DNA of 64,000 nt from IMG/VR virus record IMGVR_UViG_3300032304_001168; one strand, given 5' to 3'. Numbering within the stretch: the first letter of the stretch is position 1; every line of letters starts with the position of its first letter. Shown here one piece after another: positions 16,063-36,105 of the stretch. The DNA comes from a virus. Both the position numbers and the translations under genes were made by a program. The notes beneath the pieces are model-generated. The model did not search any database. It worked only from the letters and a program-made list of their open reading frames with translations, and was not told the DNA's origin.

Positions 16063-16587
16063 TTACTGGATTAATTTTTCACCCATCTCACTAAAATCAT
16101 TTTCTATGATAGTTTCATCGTCATCAAGACCAAATACATTTACAATTTTATCATCAATAAATGTTTTTTCACTATCTTTCTGACCTATATAATTTGGGTT
16201 AATATAGAAATCAAACTCTTCTTCATTTTCATATCTGATAATTTGGATTAATATACTTACATCACTATTTTTATCTTTGATTTTATAACCATAAACCAAA
16301 CCATAATATAAATCCTTCCATTTTTCATAATCACCATAAGGCCATAATTCTTCAATAATATCAAATACATTTTTATTTTTATTGAAAAAATCGTTTTCAT
16401 CTAAATCAACAAATATTATATCAGCCCCCATACTTAAATTTGGTGACCATAAATAATCAAATTTTTTTACATACTCTGAATTCTTTAATATTTTAAAAAG
16501 TATGGATTTTATTATATCATAATTCTTGGATTCTAATATAATTCCCATCATTGATTGGATTCTATTTATTTGTTCTTGTAGGTTCAT
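16063..16587 (-). CDS. Hypothetical protein with MNLQEQINRIQSMMGIILE leader
   Basis: 174-aa ORF. Confidence 0.75.
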   Translation of the reverse strand: MNLQEQINRIQSMMGIILESKNYDIIKSILFKILKNSEYVKKFDYLWSPNLSMGADIIFVDLDENDFFNKNKNVFDIIEELWPYGDYEKWKDLYYGLVYGYKIKDKNSDVSILIQIIRYENEEEFDFYINPNYIGQKDSEKTFIDDKIVNVFGLDDDETIIENDFSEMGEKLIQ

Positions 16588-17156
16588 ATCCTAATTTTTT
16601 CTATATTTTTGATTACATTTTTTCCCCAAATACAACCACCTTCAACATCCCAAGGATAATACCAACAATATTTATTTCGACCATCCCAATCATATGGTGA
16701 TATTTCAATACCATCATATATTTTAGCAACTTCTTGCCAATCAATAAAGTTTTTATATTGCCATATTGCACAACGTTTAGAATTTTCAACTCCAAATTGT
16801 TTATTAAAACTATATAATTCATCTTCATTAGTAATGAATAAAATTTTACTTTCATCTAATTCAATTTTAAATACATTTTCTTTTTCCCAATGAGGCATTT
16901 CAATACGAACCCAATCAATCCAACTTGTCCCAATTCCATACCATATTCCTTTTGGTTTATTACCAACTTCTTGTACTCCAATTGGAACTGAATTTATTTC
17001 TCCATAATACTTGAATTCTAAATTTTCATCTGATGTCATAACCAATTTAGAATTGGAATATTCTTTTTCAATTTTATCGTAAATTTCATCTGAAACTTCA
17101 TTGAGGTTAAGTTTCATCATTTCTTGGATTCTATTTATTTGTTCTTGTAGTTTCAT
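16584..17156 (-). CDS. Trp-rich phage protein with MKLQEQINRIQEMM leader
   Basis: Likely start at 17156; KPKGIWYG..IDWQEVAKIYDGIEI..WDV motifs. Confidence 0.7.
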   Translation of the reverse strand: MKLQEQINRIQEMMKLNLNEVSDEIYDKIEKEYSNSKLVMTSDENLEFKYYGEINSVPIGVQEVGNKPKGIWYGIGTSWIDWVRIEMPHWEKENVFKIELDESKILFITNEDELYSFNKQFGVENSKRCAIWQYKNFIDWQEVAKIYDGIEISPYDWDGRNKYCWYYPWDVEGGCIWGKNVIKNIEKIRI

Positions 17157-17295
17157 TTTGTATATATTATCAATATAAATATTAAAAGATAAATAAAAAA
17201 GGTGATAAGATTTGCCTATCACCTTTTAATATGGATTTTTTTTGATTATATGTGTTTACTCGTGCTCTATTGACCCAGAAGTCCGTTTTTAATTT

Positions 17296-17685
17296 TTATA
17301 TGTTTTTGGATATAATCTTATTATATTCTTCATCACATAGAGTTCTATACCATCCAATATCAGTTCTGAGTTTACCAGGTTTTCCTGTTACTTCACAAAT
17401 GTTCATACTTTCAATTTCAGCTTGAGATATTCTTTTATGGGCTTCACTTGTTGCCGCATTGATGTAGAATCTCAATCCTCCGAACTTTTCTTTAACTTGA
17501 CATACTTCTTTATTCCAACCAAGTTCAATAAGGTCGGTGATAAGGTCTTTGATAAGAGGAAACCAACCTGACCCAACTTCAAAGAAATCTGAATCTGTGA
17601 TTGGATTTGATTCCAAATTAAAACCATTTTTAAAGCCCCCAATTGATTGGAGGAATTCATCCATTTGTTCTTTGTTCATAATCAA
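17296..17685 (-). CDS. Conserved phage hypothetical protein (QVKEKFGGLRFY motif)
   Basis: 129 aa; recurrent phage motif. Confidence 0.75.
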   Translation of the reverse strand: MIMNKEQMDEFLQSIGGFKNGFNLESNPITDSDFFEVGSGWFPLIKDLITDLIELGWNKEVCQVKEKFGGLRFYINAATSEAHKRISQAEIESMNICEVTGKPGKLRTDIGWYRTLCDEEYNKIISKNI

Positions 17686-17941
17686 TTATATTTTTTATAA
17701 GGTTTAACATTGTTTCATTCTCCATATAACCATCAAATTGTTCTCCGTGATTATCTATGGATAGAATATTATCGCCATTAATAGCGTCAAATACTTTGAT
17801 TGTTGGTTCTTTACTGACATAGACATTAAAATTACCCCATCTATATCTGATATAGAACATTCTTCCATCCTCAAAAGTTCCTTGCCATTGAGATGGAGAT
17901 ACCTCACAGGTTTTAATTAATTCTTTGATTTTGGGTTTCAT
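17657..17941 (-). CDS. Hypothetical protein (PSQW..YIRYRWG motif)
   Basis: 94-aa ORF. Confidence 0.7.
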   Translation of the reverse strand: MKPKIKELIKTCEVSPSQWQGTFEDGRMFYIRYRWGNFNVYVSKEPTIKVFDAINGDNILSIDNHGEQFDGYMENETMLNLIKNIIDYEQRTNG

Positions 17942-17999
17942 ATCTTTAATGTTGATTAAGATATATTATTGATTTTGTTGGGGTTAGGGTGAGTGGCGT

Positions 18000-18016
18000 A
18001 TATATACTAGTTATGT
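18000..18016 (+). mobile_element. attI-like site of orphan cassette array
   Basis: ATATACTAGTTATGT matches ATATTCTAGTTATAC next to the integrase; GTTATGTTT is complementary to AAACATAAC ending the first cassette. Confidence 0.6.
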
Positions 18017-18031
18017 TTAATTTTAAAAATT

Positions 18032-18328
18032 TTATGAATTTGTTTTATGCTTCGCAATCCACTCATCATAAGTTATTGAATTTTCATTTAGATATTTTTT
18101 AGATATATCAGCATTCCATTTTTTCATTTCTTCGTATGTCATTCCTTTCAATGCTAATGAACAATTTAAGTCAAATGAAAATTCAATACCACCAGTCCAA
18201 ATAACTTCATAAAAAACTGATGTGTCTTTGTGCCAATCATTACTGTTAATAGCATCACCATTCATTGTTATAAAAGCATCAGTTATTTGCTTCATATATG
18301 CTTCGTATTCTTTTTGATATTCTCTCAT
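18032..18328 (-). CDS. Cassette gene A, hypothetical
   Basis: 98 aa between the attI-like site and attC A. Confidence 0.75.
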   Translation of the reverse strand: MREYQKEYEAYMKQITDAFITMNGDAINSNDWHKDTSVFYEVIWTGGIEFSFDLNCSLALKGMTYEEMKKWNADISKKYLNENSITYDEWIAKHKTNS

Positions 18329-18359
18329 TTTTTATTTGTATAAAATTTTTAAAACTAAA

Positions 18360-18413
18360 ACATAACAACAAATATATTACATTAAAACGACAATATATTT
18401 GCGACCGTTAGTG
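18360..18413 (+). mobile_element. attC-like site A (54 bp)
   Basis: ACATAAC..CAAATATATT-AC-ATTAAAAC-GAC-AATATATTTG..GTTAGTG. Confidence 0.8.
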
Positions 18414-18418
18414 ATAAT

Positions 18419-18676
18419 TTATCTTCGTTTGTATAACATTTCCTTTTCTTCGTCAAAATGAAAATTGTTTTCTTTCGCAAAAGACCTAACCATTTTCTTA
18501 AACGCAACATATTCCCAAGTTGTTAGTTTTTCACTATTAAACAATTTTCTCATTTTGTGTAAAAGACCATTTTCGTTTCTTGTCGAACCATCTTGATATA
18601 AACTATCACTAACATCAGATATATTCAAGTTTTCTTCTGATTCGTTAAATCTTTTTATGTGTTTTAAATCTTTCAT
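18419..18676 (-). CDS. Cassette gene B, starts inside attC B, MKDLKHIKRFNE leader
   Basis: 85 aa; codons ISDVSDS cross the left box of attC B. Confidence 0.75.
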   Translation of the reverse strand: MKDLKHIKRFNESEENLNISDVSDSLYQDGSTRNENGLLHKMRKLFNSEKLTTWEYVAFKKMVRSFAKENNFHFDEEKEMLYKRR

Positions 18677-18743
18677 ATTATTAAATTATTTTTTTAGTAT
18701 ATATTAAAAAAGAAAACCTAAATATATCTGAATATCGTTAGGT
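18607..18743 (+). mobile_element. attC-like site B (137 bp)
   Basis: CACTAAC; TCAGATATATT (18615-25) pairs with AATATATCTGA (18721-31); GTTAGGT; TATCACTAAC complements GTTAGTGATA at the cassette start. Confidence 0.7.
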
Positions 18744-18962
18744 TTAATCATTAATTTGTTTTGAATCGCCTATCATATTTTTAATTCTATCAACTTCTGT
18801 TAAGTGTTTTTCAATTCGTTCTTTGAATCTATGTTCATATTCCTTATCAACTTCACCCAAGTCGGTTGTTTCAAGATATTTTTTAGGTAATCCTTTACCC
18901 ATAGTTTCCTTGAGTTTATTTTGAAAATACTCAAGTTCTTCGTTTGTGTTTTTATTTTCCAT
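18744..18962 (-). CDS. Cassette gene C, hypothetical
   Basis: 72 aa; own TACCTTTG -7 box at 18978-18985. Confidence 0.7.
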   Translation of the reverse strand: MENKNTNEELEYFQNKLKETMGKGLPKKYLETTDLGEVDKEYEHRFKERIEKHLTEVDRIKNMIGDSKQIND

Positions 18963-19003
18963 ATTCTATATTTTTTACAAAGGTAAAACAAATTAATGAC
19001 AAA

Positions 19004-19057
19004 ACCTAACAAATGATAAACAACATTAAAACGATTGTTTATCATCAGACGTTATAA
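19004..19057 (+). mobile_element. attC-like site C (54 bp)
   Basis: ACCTAAC..ATGATAAACAA-C-ATTAAAAC-GA-TTGTTTATCAT..GTTATAA. Confidence 0.8.
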
Positions 19058-19102
19058 AACATTTAAAGATTCATCATTTTTATAATTCCCTTTAGTATCA
19101 TA

Positions 19103-20633: not shown

Positions 20634-20745
20634 TAGTCCTGACAGGATTCGAACCTGCATTTGTATATATTTGTGACCTCGACTGCCGTTGTATCCTCAA
20701 ACTAAATCACCTGCCGATGTGCGTCTACCATTCCGCCACAGGACT
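20634..20745 (-). tRNA. Atypical tRNA-like RNA (Leu-type D arm, no canonical anticodon loop)
   Basis: Acceptor AGTCCTG/CAGGACT; D arm TGGCGGAATGGTAGACGC; T arm GCAGGTTCGAATCCTGT; ~112 nt. Confidence 0.75.
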
Positions 20746-30003: not shown

Positions 30004-30135
30004 CTACTTCTTATGGTAAGAACTATCTTTTTCAACCTTGTGACAAGGTTTCTCAACTTTAGTACAACAAGCTTTCTTTGCTGGACAACAAGCTACCATA
30101 AGAACTACAAACATACCAAATAAAAACAATTTCAT
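30004..30135 (-). CDS. Small Cys-rich putative lipoprotein (43 aa; not in ORF track)
   Basis: MKLFLFGMFVVLMVA-CCPAKKACCTKVEKPCHKVEKDSSYHKK. Confidence 0.6.
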   Translation of the reverse strand: MKLFLFGMFVVLMVACCPAKKACCTKVEKPCHKVEKDSSYHKK

Positions 30136-30692: not shown

Positions 30693-31565
30693 TTATTTTT
30701 TACTTTCTTGTTTTATCACCTTGTGAATAAAACTATTACTAAAACTAGTTTCTTTCTTGATTAGTTCAAAATTATATCCTTTTTCAACTAAATTTTTTAC
30801 AATGTTATGTTTTTCATTTTTTAACAATCTTGTCTGAACTTTATTCCATTTTCTATCTAAAACAGGTAATTCTAAATTTAGAATTTTTTCTTTTATATTC
30901 TTTAATGTTTTTAATTTATTTATGTAAACTAATGAACAATTATCTGAAGTTAAGTTAAATTTTTTATTTTCATTCGTTAAATGATAGTAAAAAAATTCTA
31001 ATATTTCTTTCCAAGACGAATCACATTTAATTCTTAACATTCCTTTATTACATATAGAACCATCACCATCAATAAATCCAATAATTAAACTGAATATACC
31101 ATCATCAGTTAAAAATTTAGGTATTTGTATTGGTATCTTAGTTTTATTTGATTCCCAACCAAAATCATTAGATAACTTACTAATTGTTTTTTTATCGGAT
31201 AAAGTAATTCTTACTATTGAGGGAGTTTCTATTATTTTAAATCCACCCAAATATTGTTGTAATTTTATTATGTGGTCTTTATCATTTTTTGATAAATTAA
31301 TTTGTATATTTTTTTGTTTTGATATATGTCCATCAGCTAACATAAATCCTATCCAATATAACGTAATATTATTATAATAATCTAATAATTTTTTGTATTT
31401 CCAATCATTAACATTTTCATTAAATTCTCTTTTAATATTATTATAGTGAGCTAATTTTTGGATATATGGCCAAGAAAGATTTAATGTTTCCATAATTTCT
31501 TTCTTAGATTTTTTAGAATAATTTGTTTTAAGATATGTTATATTTTTTTCTTTATTACTTTCCAT
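30693..31565 (-). CDS. LAGLIDADG homing endonuclease (free-standing)
   Basis: Two motifs WIGFMLADG and IIGFIDGDG. Confidence 0.85.
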   Translation of the reverse strand: MESNKEKNITYLKTNYSKKSKKEIMETLNLSWPYIQKLAHYNNIKREFNENVNDWKYKKLLDYYNNITLYWIGFMLADGHISKQKNIQINLSKNDKDHIIKLQQYLGGFKIIETPSIVRITLSDKKTISKLSNDFGWESNKTKIPIQIPKFLTDDGIFSLIIGFIDGDGSICNKGMLRIKCDSSWKEILEFFYYHLTNENKKFNLTSDNCSLVYINKLKTLKNIKEKILNLELPVLDRKWNKVQTRLLKNEKHNIVKNLVEKGYNFELIKKETSFSNSFIHKVIKQESKK

Positions 31566-31580
31566 ATAACATAAATATCT

Positions 31581-32006
31581 TTACCTTGTAAAAAGGTGAA
31601 TATCTCTGTTAATTTCTTTTTGAATATCTCGTTCTTTAATCGTATTTCTTTTATCCCTTTCCTTCTTCCCTTGAGCCAAAACTATTTCAACTTTAACTAG
31701 TCCCCTATCATTAACATAAATTTTGGTTGGGACAATTGTTAAACCATTAATAAGTTTTGATTTCAATTTATTAAGCTCAGATTTTTTTAATAACAACTTT
31801 CTTTCCCTTTTTGGTTCCCCATTTGGTAAAGATATTGAAATATTTTTAACAAACAATTCTTGGTCTTTGAAATAACAATATGTGTCAGTTAAATTTGCAT
31901 TTCCATTACGGATGGATTTAACTTCCATTCCTGTCAATACAATACCGGCTTGATAGGTTTCAAGGAATGTATATTCAAATTTGGTTTTTCTATTTTCAAT
32001 ATTCAT
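31581..32006 (-). CDS. smpB: SsrA-binding protein SmpB
   Basis: NRK..FEY..AGIVLTGMEVKSIR..RERKLLLKK..AQGKK..DKR..IKERD; likely start MNIENRK. Confidence 0.92.
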   Translation of the reverse strand: MNIENRKTKFEYTFLETYQAGIVLTGMEVKSIRNGNANLTDTYCYFKDQELFVKNISISLPNGEPKRERKLLLKKSELNKLKSKLINGLTIVPTKIYVNDRGLVKVEIVLAQGKKERDKRNTIKERDIQKEINRDIHLFTR

Positions 32007-32232
32007 CTTCGTCATCATCATCATATTCTAATTCCCAATTTGCTTCATTGTTTTTGTTTGTGATATATTGTTCCAATTCTTTGGCGACTTCCAAGTATTT
32101 TTCTCTTAACTCGTGGAATTTTTCATCCTCTATTTCTTCGAATGAGGAGTAGTGTTTGAAACAATAATGAAACCCTTCTGCGTCCATTCTATAATGAACA
32201 TTATTCCAGTTTTCCGCTTCTTCTGCTTTCAT
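31996..32232 (-). CDS. Hypothetical protein
   Basis: 78 aa; acidic tail. Confidence 0.7.
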   Translation of the reverse strand: MKAEEAENWNNVHYRMDAEGFHYCFKHYSSFEEIEDEKFHELREKYLEVAKELEQYITNKNNEANWELEYDDDDEDEY

Positions 32233-32286
32233 AATAATTTTATTTTTTGATGAGTTAAAGATAAGAAAAAATTTTTGTATAAAAAA

Positions 32287-33087
32287 TTAAATAGGTAAAT
32301 TTATTTTACTTAATAACTGATTTGAAACGTGTGTATAAATTTCAGTTGTTTTAACATTATTATGACCTGCAATCTTTTGAATTATTCTCAAATCCGTTCC
32401 ATTTTCTAATAAATTGGTGAAACAAGAATGTCTGAGTTGATGAATATGATATTCTTTACCTAAGTATTGCTTTACAATTTTATTACAACTCCCAAAACTA
32501 TATTTTAGATTATTTTGACCATTGAATAGATGGGTGATTGGTTTATATTCTTTATAATATTCTCTTAGAAGTTGTAGGATATTTTGTGATAGTGGAACAA
32601 TCCTATCTTTTCTACCTTTGGCATTTTTGATATGGATAATCATTCTTTTGGAATCAATATCTTCAATTTTGAGATTGACTACTTCTGACACTCTTAGACC
32701 TACTGAAAATGTTAGTGATAGTAGTGTCTTATGTTTTAGGTTTTTGATTTTGGAGAGTTGTTCTTTAATAAAATCACCATCAATAACTTTTGGAAGTTTC
32801 TTTTCTGATTTAGGTCTTTTGAAACTTACTTTATCATATTTTTTATCCAATCCAAATTTATAGAGAAATCTGATTGCGTTAATGATTTGGTTTTGTTGAG
32901 AAACTGAGGTGAAGTTATAGTTATCTAAATAAGATTGAAAATCTTGAGAGGTTAATCTAGTTGGTGATGTTTTATTATTTTCTAAAAACTGATTGATGTA
33001 AAAAAGATAGGACTTGATTGTCCTATCTGAGTAATTTAAGTATTTCAATTTTTGATTACAAATTTCGTAGTAATTTGTCTTTTTCAT
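32287..33087 (-). CDS. Tyrosine recombinase (integron-integrase-like, lacks IntI insertion)
   Basis: YSDRTIKSY SAM-like N-terminus; GLRVSE, KGRKDR, HQLRH, GTDLRIIQKIAGH, TTEIY catalytic set intact. Confidence 0.92.
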   Translation of the reverse strand: MKKTNYYEICNQKLKYLNYSDRTIKSYLFYINQFLENNKTSPTRLTSQDFQSYLDNYNFTSVSQQNQIINAIRFLYKFGLDKKYDKVSFKRPKSEKKLPKVIDGDFIKEQLSKIKNLKHKTLLSLTFSVGLRVSEVVNLKIEDIDSKRMIIHIKNAKGRKDRIVPLSQNILQLLREYYKEYKPITHLFNGQNNLKYSFGSCNKIVKQYLGKEYHIHQLRHSCFTNLLENGTDLRIIQKIAGHNNVKTTEIYTHVSNQLLSKINLPI

Positions 33088-33128
33088 TGTCTAAATCATT
33101 AATTATCAAGGTTTTGAAATAGGTGTTG

Positions 33129-33145
33129 ATATATTCTAGTTATAC
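33129..33145 (+). mobile_element. attI-like site
   Basis: ATATATTCTAGTTATAC about 50 bp 5' of the integrase start; GTTATACT complements AGTATAAC ending cassette 1. Confidence 0.65.
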
Positions 33146-33157
33146 TCAATTAAAAAA

Positions 33158-33352
33158 TTATTTTGAGTTCTTTAATATACCTTCTTGTTTTGACATCTCA
33201 ATAAACTCTTCGTCAGAATCAACTAAAAGAATTGAAAATAATCTACCTTCAACCATTTCCGTAGGAACATTTGATGTTAAATATCCTCTAACTATCTCCA
33301 TATCCCAGTGTTTTTCAATTCTTTCTTCCATCATTTGTGTTAAGTTTTTCAT
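33158..33352 (-). CDS. Cassette gene 1, hypothetical
   Basis: 64 aa between the attI-like site and attC1. Confidence 0.65.
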   Translation of the reverse strand: MKNLTQMMEERIEKHWDMEIVRGYLTSNVPTEMVEGRLFSILLVDSDEEFIEMSKQEGILKNSK

Positions 33353-33389
33353 CTATTTTTTTTAATTTGTAAAATAATTTTTTAACTAA

Positions 33390-33443
33390 GTATAACAAAG
33401 AATATGTGTCATTAAAACGAACACATATTCTCAACCGTTATGT
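33390..33443 (+). mobile_element. attC-like site 1 (54 bp)
   Basis: GTATAAC..AGAATATGTGT-C-ATTAAAAC-GA-ACACATATTCT..GTTATGT. Confidence 0.82.
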
Positions 33444-33510
33444 GTAAGTGTTTCATTCATCATTCTAATCAACATTTCGGTTGAAAATTTTTAAAGAAAA
33501 ATCCATCGCA

Positions 33511-34503
33511 CTATTTTTTAATTACTAAATAATTTTTATTTTCTTTATTTGAATATAACTCATATTTTGGGTTAGTTGAAACAAGTTCATCATTATTTGG
33601 TTTAACATCAAAATATTCATCATTTTTTTCATTATAACCCATAATTTTATATTTACCATATAACTTAACCCATAATTTTCTTGCTTCTGGTGTTTGCATT
33701 TTATCTGAATATAATATAGTTTTATTTATAATATAGTCATACGCCTTTGTCGCAACACCTAAACCCCTTGCTGTGTCTTTAACGCCAAGTGTTGATATTT
33801 TATATCCATTATGAAATTTATTTAACCCTACATAACCAATAGGTAAATCATCATTATATATAATTAATTTAACACCATCACTATTTTCAGCCCATTGAAA
33901 CCCTAGCCCAGAGAATTTATCAATTGATTTCGTTATTTTATCTGCTTCACCCTTCGCCCAATCCACAAATTCATTGTAATCAATTTTACCACCTACTAAA
34001 GAAGTGGTTCTCTTGATTTCATTAATTGGGTTATAATTTAGTGGTAATGGGTAATTACCTTGTTCCAAATTTTTAGAATCCCAAAATTCAGTTTTTAATT
34101 TTATATTATCCCAAAAATTGTTTTCTTTATCTAAAAAATTTTTAATTAAATAAATTGCCGAAATTCTATGAGCACCATCTTGTAAACTACCATCAACCAC
34201 AATTATCGGTGGTAAATTTTTTGTTGATTTTGGGTTTTTTATTATATAATTAGCATATTCTAACACCTTTTTCGTTACACCCCAACTATAATCTTTATCA
34301 ATTACATCACTTAATACCTCTCTATAATAAGGTATATTTTTTATTCTATTTGTAATTTCATCAACAGTTAGAAACTTTATATTAGTTGGTTTAGAATTTT
34401 TCTTAAATTCTGCTGGTTTTCCAGAACTTTCACCAGATTGTGGGATATTCTCATTCAAAAAATCTCTAATTGTGGTTTTAATAAATTGTTTCAAATTTTT
34501 CAT
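33511..34503 (-). CDS. Cassette gene 2: leader + ParB/Srx-like domain + GNAT-like domain
   Basis: MKNLKQFIKTTIRDFLNE; LPPIIVVDG..DGAHRI; ARGLGVATKAY..QTPEARKLW. Confidence 0.7.
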   Translation of the reverse strand: MKNLKQFIKTTIRDFLNENIPQSGESSGKPAEFKKNSKPTNIKFLTVDEITNRIKNIPYYREVLSDVIDKDYSWGVTKKVLEYANYIIKNPKSTKNLPPIIVVDGSLQDGAHRISAIYLIKNFLDKENNFWDNIKLKTEFWDSKNLEQGNYPLPLNYNPINEIKRTTSLVGGKIDYNEFVDWAKGEADKITKSIDKFSGLGFQWAENSDGVKLIIYNDDLPIGYVGLNKFHNGYKISTLGVKDTARGLGVATKAYDYIINKTILYSDKMQTPEARKLWVKLYGKYKIMGYNEKNDEYFDVKPNNDELVSTNPKYELYSNKENKNYLVIKK

Positions 34504-34613
34504 TGTTTTCTTTTATATAAATATTAAGATTTAAAAAAACCACACTTCTTTTTCTTTTAAATTTTTTGTTTAGTTCTTCGATTAAACATTCTACCTTAAT
34601 TAACCACACCTAC

Positions 34614-34707
34614 ACATAACAAGGTGTATAAGAAAGTTTGCTATAAAGTTTAGTGGTAATTTGAAAGTTCATCTAAGCAAACCTTCTCATACACCCAAAC
34701 GTTATAC
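34614..34707 (+). mobile_element. attC-like site 2 (94 bp)
   Basis: ACATAAC; 18/20-bp stem GGTGTATAAGAAAGTTTGCT / AGCAAACCTTCTCATACACC; GTTATAC; CACCTACACATAAC complements GTTATGTGTAAGTG (13/14). Confidence 0.82.
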
Positions 34708-34713
34708 ACAATA

Positions 34714-34926
34714 TTACGCAACCTCTTCAACAGTTACACCAATCAAAGGATATAATCTAACCATATCAGCAAATTGAGCGTGGTTTACATTCTCAATGTT
34801 TTCACCTACTTGTAATTTAAGTCTACTCAACCTATTAAATGTTGGTGTTGAATTTAATCGTTTTAGTATTTGTTCGTTGGGTATTGTAATTTTTACAGTT
34901 TTAATATTCCTAATTTTATCAATCAT
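34714..34926 (-). CDS. Cassette gene 3, hypothetical (followed by truncated attC, GTATAAC 34948-34954)
   Basis: 70 aa; cassette ends GTTATAC / GTATAAC are complementary. Confidence 0.65.
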   Translation of the reverse strand: MIDKIRNIKTVKITIPNEQILKRLNSTPTFNRLSRLKLQVGENIENVNHAQFADMVRLYPLIGVTVEEVA

Positions 34927-34989
34927 TTCTTTGTAATGTTAATAATAGTATAACCAATCAAACAACCATAAAGTTCCAAGTTTATAATT

Positions 34990-35562
34990 TTATTTTCTAC
35001 CACGAGCTCTTTGGATTTTATATTCCCCAAACGCTTCATTTATTGCAAATGGTATTGGTTCATTATTTTCTTGATGATTCCATTTAGGGTATTTATTTTC
35101 TATTTGAAAATATTGTTTCATAAACACCTCTTCTATACCCTTAGCACTTATTGGAACATAAATTATCTCATTATTGGTTAGTCCTGGTACTTTTACTTCA
35201 ATCAAATCCATATAAACCATATAAACTTCAACTTTGTTTCCTTTATCTAATTCTTCTCTGATTAATAAATTAATGAAAAATCTATTGATACCAGGGTCAT
35301 CTTGACCTGACTTGAGATAAAAATTCATACATCCAGAAATACCATTTTTCGCGGAAGATTGACCAATTTTATAAATTATATTATTGATTACAAATAGATA
35401 AACCAAAGCCAAATGTTCGTTTTTAAGATGTTTGGGGAAATTTTCATCATAGATGAGTTTCAAAGCATTTCTATGTAAGACATAAGAATTACCCTTAAAA
35501 TCAGTTTCTCCTAAAACAATCTGACCAACTCTAATACAATTTTTTGCGATTGTTATATTCAT
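34990..35562 (-). CDS. GIY-YIG family nuclease, Hpy188I-like restriction-type
   Basis: LVYLFVINNIIYKIGQS..IEE..YPKWNHQE; TAGATTTG -7 box upstream. Confidence 0.6.
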   Translation of the reverse strand: MNITIAKNCIRVGQIVLGETDFKGNSYVLHRNALKLIYDENFPKHLKNEHLALVYLFVINNIIYKIGQSSAKNGISGCMNFYLKSGQDDPGINRFFINLLIREELDKGNKVEVYMVYMDLIEVKVPGLTNNEIIYVPISAKGIEEVFMKQYFQIENKYPKWNHQENNEPIPFAINEAFGEYKIQRARGRK

Positions 35563-35718
35563 TATATTATATATTTAAGATTACAAATCTAAAAATAATG
35601 ATAAAATTTTATAAAAACAAAAAAACTCCAATAATTTTTACAATTATCGGAGTTCTATATATTGACCAACATAAGAAAGGGAAGTTGGGGATTTGTGAAA
35701 TATAAATATATCGAATTT

Positions 35719-36105
35719 TCAAAAAATCTTATTTATTATAAAAAAAAGTTGATTTTCTACCTTTTTGGGTAAAGTTTTTTTGGTAAACCACTTACACTCC
35801 TCGTGTTCATGCCCATCTTGAGCCTCATCCAAATCAATATTTATCTTTTTATCAATCTCATATAAGAACAAATAGAATTTCATTCTTGACCCACCACTTA
35901 ATGTCGCCACATAATCCAAGTTATCAACAATCTGATATCCAGTTTCTTCCCTAAACTCCCTTATAGCACCATCTTGAATATTCTCGTCTTTCTCCAAATG
36001 TCCTCCAGGAACTGACCAAATACCAGGTAAACTCCCTTTCTGACTTCTTTTGCATAATAAACAATGATTTTTATATTTTAATAAAATACCTGCACAATTT
36101 CCCAT
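35719..36105 (-). CDS. NUDIX hydrolase
   Basis: GGHLEKDENIQDGAIREFREETG. Confidence 0.92.
   Translation of the reverse strand: MGNCAGILLKYKNHCLLCKRSQKGSLPGIWSVPGGHLEKDENIQDGAIREFREETGYQIVDNLDYVATLSGGSRMKFYLFLYEIDKKINIDLDEAQDGHEHEECKWFTKKTLPKKVENQLFFIINKIF

Follow-up and report, generated by a model that had tools for sequence, protein, structure and literature searches.

A 64,000-nucleotide stretch of viral DNA (IMG/VR record IMGVR_UViG_3300032304_001168; "the window" below) carries a gene for a tyrosine recombinase and, directly upstream of that gene, an attI-like junction followed by three small gene cassettes, two of them with a hairpin site (Table 1). Comparison of this region with related loci makes it very likely that it is an integron-like, site-specific cassette platform in a low-GC jumbo phage of Bacteroidota, run by the adjacent Xer-like recombinase. 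It is also probable, with less assurance, that the substrate is the folded DNA of the integrase strand as opposed to duplex DNA. By its defining enzyme the platform falls outside the integron family, and it very probably works like an integron. The outline of the system was contained in an original prediction made from the letters of the window, and full-text literature searches found no paper describing such a recombinase-attI-cassette system.

The hairpin sites belong to a large and uniform family. The window and the loci of 63 related IMG/VR contigs (1.04 Mb) were scanned for TAAC, a spacer of 3-6 nucleotides (nt), a stem of at least 10 base pairs (bp; G.T allowed), a loop, 0-3 nt and GTTA, which returned 210 sites on the integrase strand, against 1 on the opposite strand and 4 in Markov-random sequence; a chance origin of the sites is thereby excluded at the family level. 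Almost all (201 of 210) lie 0.2-9 kb upstream of an integrase gene, in arrays of up to 15, and the form of the sites, nnnTAAC-GNNN-stem-loop-stem-T-GTTAnnn, has an asymmetric spacer of 4-5 nt on one side and 1 nt on the other. Five whole phage records of 180-465 kb, each with a single integrase, contain nine short-type sites, all of them on the integrase strand and within about 7 kb upstream of the integrase; no short-type site was found elsewhere in these five. Short-type sites have a common loop, CGTTTTAAT, carried on at least five different stems. In their alignment, 9 of the 13 stem pairs show compensatory changes and 99.6% of cells are paired, and neither the observed percentage paired nor the covariation score was reached in any of 500 shuffles. 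On the integrase strand the stem is closed by two G.T pairs, present in 25-30 of 30 sequences, where the other strand has A.C mismatches. Of 176 distinct sites folded with DNA parameters, 168 were the more stable on the integrase strand, by a mean of 2.1 kcal/mol. The original prediction had anticipated this asymmetry, reading A.C mismatches on the top strand of the window as G.T pairs on the bottom strand, and the same strand, the minus strand, carries all genes of the integrase-array region in the open reading frame (ORF) list of the window.

The two hairpins with TAAC and GTTA ends that had been predicted in the window were recovered, one of each type. The loop of site 1 recurs in 30 sites of relatives and in the published phage site P12002L_attC1; site 2, which folds at -14.1 as against -11.7 kcal/mol for the two strands, has near-identical counterparts in loci L008, L011, L012 and L047. 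Sites within one array resemble each other. The architecture is that of attC sites, with outer and inner helices, AAC/GTT, a crossover at the core and a remnant of the unit's own R', while no clear extrahelical bases were identified in the folded sites. The loop of a long-type hairpin contains the start codon of the cassette ORF, and a conserved N-terminal peptide, ..ENLNISDVS.., is encoded jointly by the 3' arm and GTTA. Examples of this peptide occur at 18610-18740 of the window and in L004, L011 and L018; it may be a shared leader or targeting peptide, or a mere constraint of the site.

Each unit of the window also has a start that complements its own end, as the original prediction pointed out. 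In cassette 1 the ends form a 26-nt inverted repeat (92%; 33139-33164 and 33371-33396), in cassette 2 the start GTTATGTGTAAGTG is complementary to the end CACCTACACATAAC over 14 nt, and in cassette 3 the complement is the 7 nt of GTTATAC and GTATAAC. The GTTATAC motif occurs at 33139(+), 33390(-), 34701(+) and 34948(-), so that 4 of the window's 16 copies (8.3 expected) fall inside 1.8 kb. The third unit had been described as truncated at 34948; no hairpin was found past 34954, and cassette 3 is therefore taken as truncated and as the distal boundary of the array. For 129 non-redundant units of the family, each with a site at either end, the 12 nt that follow GTTA were compared with the 12 nt that precede the unit's own TAAC, the latter in reverse complement. 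Beyond the core the contiguous complement averaged 4.16 nt, against 0.84 nt for shuffled pairings of starts and ends (maximum 1.17 nt in 200 shuffles), and in 62 of the 129 units the pairing extends through all six variable positions before it first breaks. The break itself, G in the start against A in the reverse-complemented end, is a G.T pair, after which pairing resumes. Complementarity between a start and its own end is what would be predicted for a circularisable unit that recombines at the core.

The presumed partner of these sites adjoins the recombinase gene, where an attI-like core had also been predicted. On the minus strand the junction reads ..TAAC^TAGAATATATC... (the caret marks the junction), with the core TAAC^TAnnATATAT 51 nt upstream of the integrase start codon, and in 51 of 61 loci the core AAC^TAnnATATAT(A/C)AA is found 42-123 nt upstream of the start codon. 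Exact copies in the window are at 33129-33142, by the integrase, and at 18000-18013, in a second array. Among relatives, the upstream flank of the integrase is conserved only up to ..TAAC^ and all beyond it differs; the attI-like site stands beside the integrase, with the presumably newest cassette next to it. This junction has no hairpin, yet it is the commonest breakpoint and is exact to the base. At the crossover, attI and attC-like sites have only TAAC in common, and hence there is no 6-8-bp overlap of the kind needed for a classical two-step duplex exchange. By eye, the attI consensus contains no inverted dif-type 11-6-11 arms, its TAAC and (A/C)AAC boxes being in direct order.

Exact insertions and replacements of units were observed at these boundaries. 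The integrase genes of L007, L008 and L010 are identical over all 798 nt and homology stops at TAAC^; L007 and L009 have their first cassette in common and diverge at the next TAAC^; over the 10.8 kb that lead to the junction L005 and L006 are 100% identical; and L041 and L042 carry a different terminal cassette between the same two boundaries. The 3' tail of cassette 2 is common to L012 and L033, where it abuts attI directly. Locus L030 equals L026 plus a 1.3-kb unit at ..GCATAAC^TATAATATAGC.., composed of spacer, hairpin (loop TCGTTTTAATG) and then GTTGTACCCC...GGGGTACAAC at its end, and the boundaries of this insert place the crossover within AACT. Among cultured phages, Polaribacter phage Freya_6 equals Freya_5 plus 472 nt at ..ATTGTTACCAAC^ACCCCTATAAC.. 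(..CCAAC^), about 55 nt upstream of an integrase that is 37% identical to that of the window. At this place, between the same distal unit and attI, Freya_10 is longer by about 3.2 kb. The Freya series consists of ten isolates from one host, with genomes of 44.0-48.9 kb, and the five that were compared (Freya_1, 5, 6, 8 and 10; L071-L077) differ, as far as this region is concerned, in the amount stacked between a fixed distal unit and the attI-like junction upstream of the integrase. Population comparisons, which rest on assembled Logan contigs, gave a similar picture for the window: homology with contigs of two other lake samples (X3 and X6) stops at 34926, and a contig of run X6 joins 31701-32235 to 34926-35648 through 1.5 kb of other sequence. 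A 20-nt loose end at 33432 in run X1, composed of a hairpin-2-type arm and the start of cassette 2, resembles a circle junction; it was not counted because its spacer is CAACC and not CAAAC, and it may stem from a co-occurring variant array.

The recombinase was predicted to be intact, with the residues R-K-HxxR-H-Y, and to be of a non-IntI type. Both points were borne out. Alignment to XerA located all catalytic residues (R132, K160, H216, R219, H242 and Y251, with H216 and R219 forming the HxxR motif), and the suggested hidden Markov model check matched Phage_integrase at 5.7e-34 and Phage_int_SAM_4 at 1.3e-13. The protein stays below every curated cut-off, whether for XerA (179/220 bits), XerD (148/330) or XerC (144/335), and also for the integron integrase models TIGR02249 (154.4 bits against 265) and PRK15417 (92.9 against 435), both of which match in two separate parts. 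In PDB alignments, which covered XerA and IntI4/VchIntIA, the closest solved structure was the archaeal XerA of P. abyssi (3.2e-39). The alignment with VchIntIA (2A3V) splits, query residues 178-210 standing opposite residues 181-261. With 33 amino acids (aa) where IntI has 81, the IntI-specific domain between patch II and box II is absent. Judged by these alignments, the recombinase is Xer-like and outside the IntI clade. An assignment as a XerC/XerD/XerA dimer resolvase was rejected, since the protein falls below all equivalog cut-offs and the attI consensus is without inverted arms. The 63 homologues in IMG/VR contigs adjoin cassette arrays; conservation does not extend to the genes around them. 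Metagenomes contain more than 120 protein clusters with an identity of 77% or above, those named by their source being labelled XerD, and many of these homologues sit on contigs of 1-3 kb. As separate observations, about 820 nt are inserted between integrase residues 170 and 235 in L047 (10001-11427), and the integrase of L054 and L061 (10001-10781) is frameshifted at residue 133/134; the arrays are retained in each case.

The cassettes themselves are small (median unit 318 nt) and mostly contain a single ORF. In 148 of 159 cassettes, including all three by the integrase in the window, the longest ORF is on the integrase strand and points to attI and the integrase gene. Since the ORFs are on the folding strand, a hairpin stands at the 5' end of its own gene. 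Comparison of cassette content among relatives, which the original prediction had proposed, showed it not to be invariant: nucleotide clustering divided the 159 units into 139 sequence clusters, and the same cassette was found in unrelated loci in one case (cluster 11, in L033 and L038), the units being too diverse for this comparison to find more. Pfam searches on 136 cassette proteins matched 20 families, each by one or two proteins. These include N6/N4 and D12 DNA methyltransferases, a TET-associated glycosyltransferase, Tad6 (a Thoeris inhibitor), GNATs, a PARP-like domain, a dual-specificity phosphatase, radical SAM and YopX; no transposase is among the 20 families listed for the 136 proteins. 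PHROGs searches added further methyltransferases and HNH endonucleases. The ORF of cassette 2, o330, has a weak GNAT match in Pfam and a ParB-like motif recognised by eye. On the basis of these matches, the cargo fits a store of counter-defence and other accessory genes.

A mechanism can be proposed in which a cassette, read along the integrase strand, would begin with C, a 4-5-nt spacer (GNNN), the hairpin, T, and GTTA with six variable nt and G, followed by a 5' leader, one ORF and ..ATT with six variable nt, and TAA would close it. In the circular cassette the ends would pair as a helix of at least 16 bp surrounding the invariant TAAC/GTTA, in which position 11 is a conserved G.T wobble, and this end helix would stack on the inner hairpin across an asymmetric internal loop. 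Strand exchange would occur at AA^C (ambiguous within AACT) between the folded site and the attI-like ..AAC^TAnnATATAT.., about 50 nt upstream of the recombinase's own gene. Catalysis would be by this recombinase, and the cassettes would pass through circular intermediates. Because attI is beside the integrase, new cassettes would enter there and older ones would be pushed outward. The cassette ORFs point towards the integrase, which is also the one direction in which the phage is transcribed; their expression therefore probably depends on read-through or on their own leaders and not on Pc, the promoter that serves integron cassettes. The cargo would constitute a fast-turning pool of small accessory genes, partly directed against host defence. 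The lack of a common attI/attC overlap, together with the strand asymmetry, favours recombination of a folded strand. The proposal in its entirety, that Bacteroidota phages possess an integron analogue of their own in which a minimal Xer-type enzyme without the IntI domain recombines folded single-stranded hairpin cassettes and thereby maintains a quickly reshuffled store of genes for counter-defence and other accessory functions, appears evenly balanced between true and false.

Several observations weigh against a folded-strand cassette platform or parts of it. In integrons, the extrahelical bases of folded attC are read by the IntI domain, which this enzyme does not have. The strand that folds better and is rich in G.T pairs also has the sense of the mRNA; with sense-strand hairpins, and with start codons in loops, an RNA function may have shaped the hairpins, partly or wholly. 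In arrays, the outer helix is built from the ends of two cassettes and pairs little beyond TAAC/GTTA. The evidence from the window's own population consists of assembled contigs. Some integrases are damaged (interrupted in L047, frameshifted in L054 and L061), and phage P12002L has sites and no recombinase homologue. Finally, the integrase of the small Freya relatives was read by the genome authors as a sign of a temperate lifestyle, that is, the same gene was taken for a lysogeny integrase (PMC8776804); a dual role is possible.

The absent domain, the wobbles on the sense strand, the start codons in long-type loops and the poorly paired outer helix in arrays would all be accommodated if the same platform and enzyme used ordinary duplex recombination, the hairpin having a role in the transcript (control of translation, stability of the RNA or weak termination) or serving as a protein-binding palindrome. 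This alternative is possible, and the less probable of the two. The partner sites have only TAAC in common at the crossover, and the six variable positions that covary between the ends of a cassette are meaningful only if the ends pair. The asymmetric spacer (4-5 nt versus 1 nt) and the G.T positions are, moreover, kept as structure and not as sequence. It is established that XerCD recombines the folded single-stranded attP of CTX phage, so that the IntI domain is not a prerequisite for a substrate of this kind.

A more distant explanation, and an improbable one, holds that the hairpins are intercistronic RNA elements or terminators, that homologous recombination takes place between repeats, and that the integrase is unrelated and serves in lysogeny or dimer resolution. 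The sites are indeed intergenic and on the sense strand, repeats are alike within arrays, and integrases of flavobacterial phages have been read as lysogeny genes (PMC8776804). Against this, the commonest and base-exact breakpoint is the hairpin-free attI, homologous exchange does not predict complementarity of a unit's start to its own end, and whole genomes have sites only upstream of the integrase. A scan for terminators and promoters (31500-36000) did not pick up the cassette hairpins, which are AT-rich and without a T tract and do not resemble terminators; promoter-like matches in the same interval were at chance level (30 versus 30.1). In Rfam, no family matched the hairpins between 17000 and 36000, the single match being a tRNA.

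It is similarly improbable that the cassettes are autonomous hairpin-ended elements moved by an IS200/IS605-type HUH transposase or, in the manner of IMEX elements, by host XerCD: insertion next to a constant 4-nt word with no duplication of the target, one hairpin close to an end of the unit and integrase-less arrays (17938-19097 of the window; P12002L) would suit such elements, whereas the position of 201 of 210 sites directly upstream of a recombinase, with integrases down to about 40% identity, a conserved attI at a fixed distance, the absence of transposase families from the 20 Pfam families listed for the cassette proteins and the resemblance of integrase-less arrays to integron attC clusters without integrase would not. 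The IS200/IS605-type candidate was itself rejected on the lack of a transposase among these listed families, the one hairpin per unit and the association with a tyrosine recombinase.

The platform resembles integrons in its insertion site beside the recombinase gene and its arrays of mostly single-ORF cassettes, and in imperfect hairpins with an invariant AAC...GTT in the outer helix, a crossover at the core and a remnant of the own R' at the start of each unit. The better-folding strand corresponds to the bottom strand of integrons, and the crossover is at the attI-distal end of the hairpins. Homogeneous sites within arrays (compare Vibrio repeats), very high turnover and integrase-less clusters are further likenesses. 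It departs from integrons in its 266-aa Xer-like enzyme without the additional IntI domain (154/265 bits), in an outer helix that is much longer (16-26 bp), and in the source of its strand asymmetry, an internal loop together with G.T wobbles in place of obvious extrahelical bases. Its ORFs are carried by the folding strand and face attI and the integrase, whereas integron cassettes face away and are expressed from Pc; a Pc-type promoter therefore cannot drive the cassettes found here. Instead of residing on a chromosome or plasmid, the platform is carried by a virulent-type jumbo phage.

Phages have been searched previously for IntI-type integrons by Qi et al. (2023), who reported clusters of attC sites (PMC9892861). 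Their site P12002L_attC1 (Table S3) was predicted by HattCI alone, and attC2 by HattCI and INFERNAL; of six phage sites, P12002L_attC1 was the only one that IntI1 did not recombine (PMC9892861). It is now recognised as a short-type member of the present hairpin family, with loop TCGTTTTAATG, at 30006-30056(-) between two methyltransferase genes. In the same phage (L074, 28700-40950(-)), sites of the form ATT-n6-AAC, spacer, hairpin and GTT flank methyltransferase genes and small genes. Whereas Qi et al. treated P12002L_attC1 as a stray attC, with no cognate recombinase, attI or family identified (PMC9892861), the failure of IntI1 on this site fits a need for a cognate enzyme.

Two other systems are comparable in part, and the features of the present platform that bear on each have been given above. 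In CTX-phage and IMEX integration, host XerCD joins a folded single-stranded hairpin site to duplex dif by one pair of strand exchanges. The platform proposed here would be similar in using a Xer-type recombinase to join a folded hairpin to a duplex site. It would differ from those systems, which use host XerCD, chromosomal dif and whole phage genomes, in that the enzyme is encoded by the phage, the target lies by the enzyme's own gene and the cargo consists of stacked single-gene cassettes. The mobile regulatory cassettes of T4-type phages, composed of promoters and stem-loops, are thought to act by homologous recombination and contain early promoters and terminators. In both systems, small accessory genes in the hyperplastic regions of large phages lie between repeated intergenic stem-loops. 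The present sites differ in their exact 3-4-nt core boundaries, in the attached recombinase and attI, and in hairpins that are not terminator-like.

Integrons are regarded as a bacterial invention tied to the IntI clade and its extra domain. Here the same platform logic would be carried out with a much simpler enzyme, in virulent-type jumbo phages and in small siphophages of Bacteroidota, which offers a test of the protein features needed for recombination of hairpin sites. The platform would also account for a class of hypervariable regions in the genomes of aquatic phages and for breaks in their assembly, and it indicates a large reservoir of small phage genes, most of them unknown. In bacteria, integrons store cassettes for anti-phage defence; the recognisable cargo of the phage cassettes, enriched in DNA methyltransferases together with a DNA glycosyltransferase and a Thoeris inhibitor, would mirror these. 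If the proposal is true, the capture of hairpin cassettes originated on two occasions or is older than IntI, and banks of cassettes serve both sides in the arms race between phages and bacteria. The cultured Freya phages provide an experimentally tractable model of the platform.

Carriage by a large phage, also part of the original prediction, agrees with the related contigs, which are jumbo phages of 180-465 kb with TerL in three of four tested. The ten largest ORFs of the window have almost no PHROGs or Pfam matches, and the phage assignment thus rests on the related IMG/VR records and on terminases. The sequencing runs in which the window was found are metagenomes of lakes and fresh water. 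Bacteroidota assemblies contain related integrases, and cultured relatives infect Polaribacter and Cellulophaga; in INPHARED, the integrases of cultured phages do not exceed 40% identity to that of the window. In an assembly of a Sunxiuqinia indica isolate (L065:174-8828), the integrase is at the contig start with an attI-like core GGTAAC^TAGTATATATAAAG, and the genes for HNH, TerS, TerL, portal and prohead protease come after it. From this gene order, L065 is a phage or prophage in a cultured Bacteroidota strain.

Table 1. Coordinates of the integrase, junction, cassettes and hairpin sites of the two arrays in the window (^, junction)
Feature	Position	Strand	Description
Xer-like tyrosine recombinase, presumed cassette integrase	32287-33087	minus	266 aa; Pfam, NCBIfam, PDB alignments, 63 homologues beside cassette arrays
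attI-like region	33088-33142	minus	reads ..GAGTATAAC^TAGAATATATCAACACC.., junction between 33139 and 33138
Cassette 1	33139-33436	minus	ORF o64 (33158-33352, 64 aa, no family) and hairpin site
attC-like site 1, short type	33390-33443	minus	ACATAAC-GGTT-13-bp stem-loop CGTTTTAAT-stem-T-GTTATAC
Cassette 2	33437-34700	minus	ORF o330 (33511-34503, 330 aa) and hairpin site
attC-like site 2, long type	34614-34707	minus	about 21-bp stem, G.T wobbles on minus strand, 33-nt loop
Cassette 3	34701-34954	minus	ORF o70 (34714-34926, 70 aa, no family); ends GTTATAC / GTATAAC
Second array, without integrase	17938-19097	minus	attI-like core 18000-18013, three cassettes
Second-array cassette ORF o98	18032-18328	minus	
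Second-array cassette ORF o85	18419-18676	minus	
Second-array cassette ORF o72	18744-18962	minus	
Second-array hairpin site	18360-18413	minus	
Second-array hairpin site	18607-18743	minus	
Second-array hairpin site	19004-19057	minus	

The second array, which the original prediction had missed, is skipped as a whole block of 1160 nt (17937 to 19098) in contigs of three runs from three studies. The joint of this deletion contains a 7-nt microhomology, TCATATC, and in the place of the integrase there is an unrelated 94-aa ORF at 17657-17941. Two neighbouring proteins at 16063-17222(-) have a near-identical leader (M.LQEQINRIQ.MM); the leader of o330 is MKNLKQFIK...

Directly downstream of the integrase are genes for SmpB (31581-32024(-), Pfam 7.3e-47) and for a LAGLIDADG endonuclease-like protein (30693-31565(-)), and SmpB is also near the integrase in L003, L047 and L054. 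The sole convincing intrinsic-terminator-like hairpin of the region, with 15 pairs and then a T tract, is at 35622-35656(-), between a NUDIX gene and o190 and just outside the array. The Rfam tRNA match is located at 20634-20745(-) and scores 40.3 bits over 112 nt, where ARAGORN found none. Contigs in three runs skip 62-63 nt inside this match (20657 to 20720/1), and the locus looks like a tRNA gene with an insertion of about 63 nt that is polymorphic in the population.

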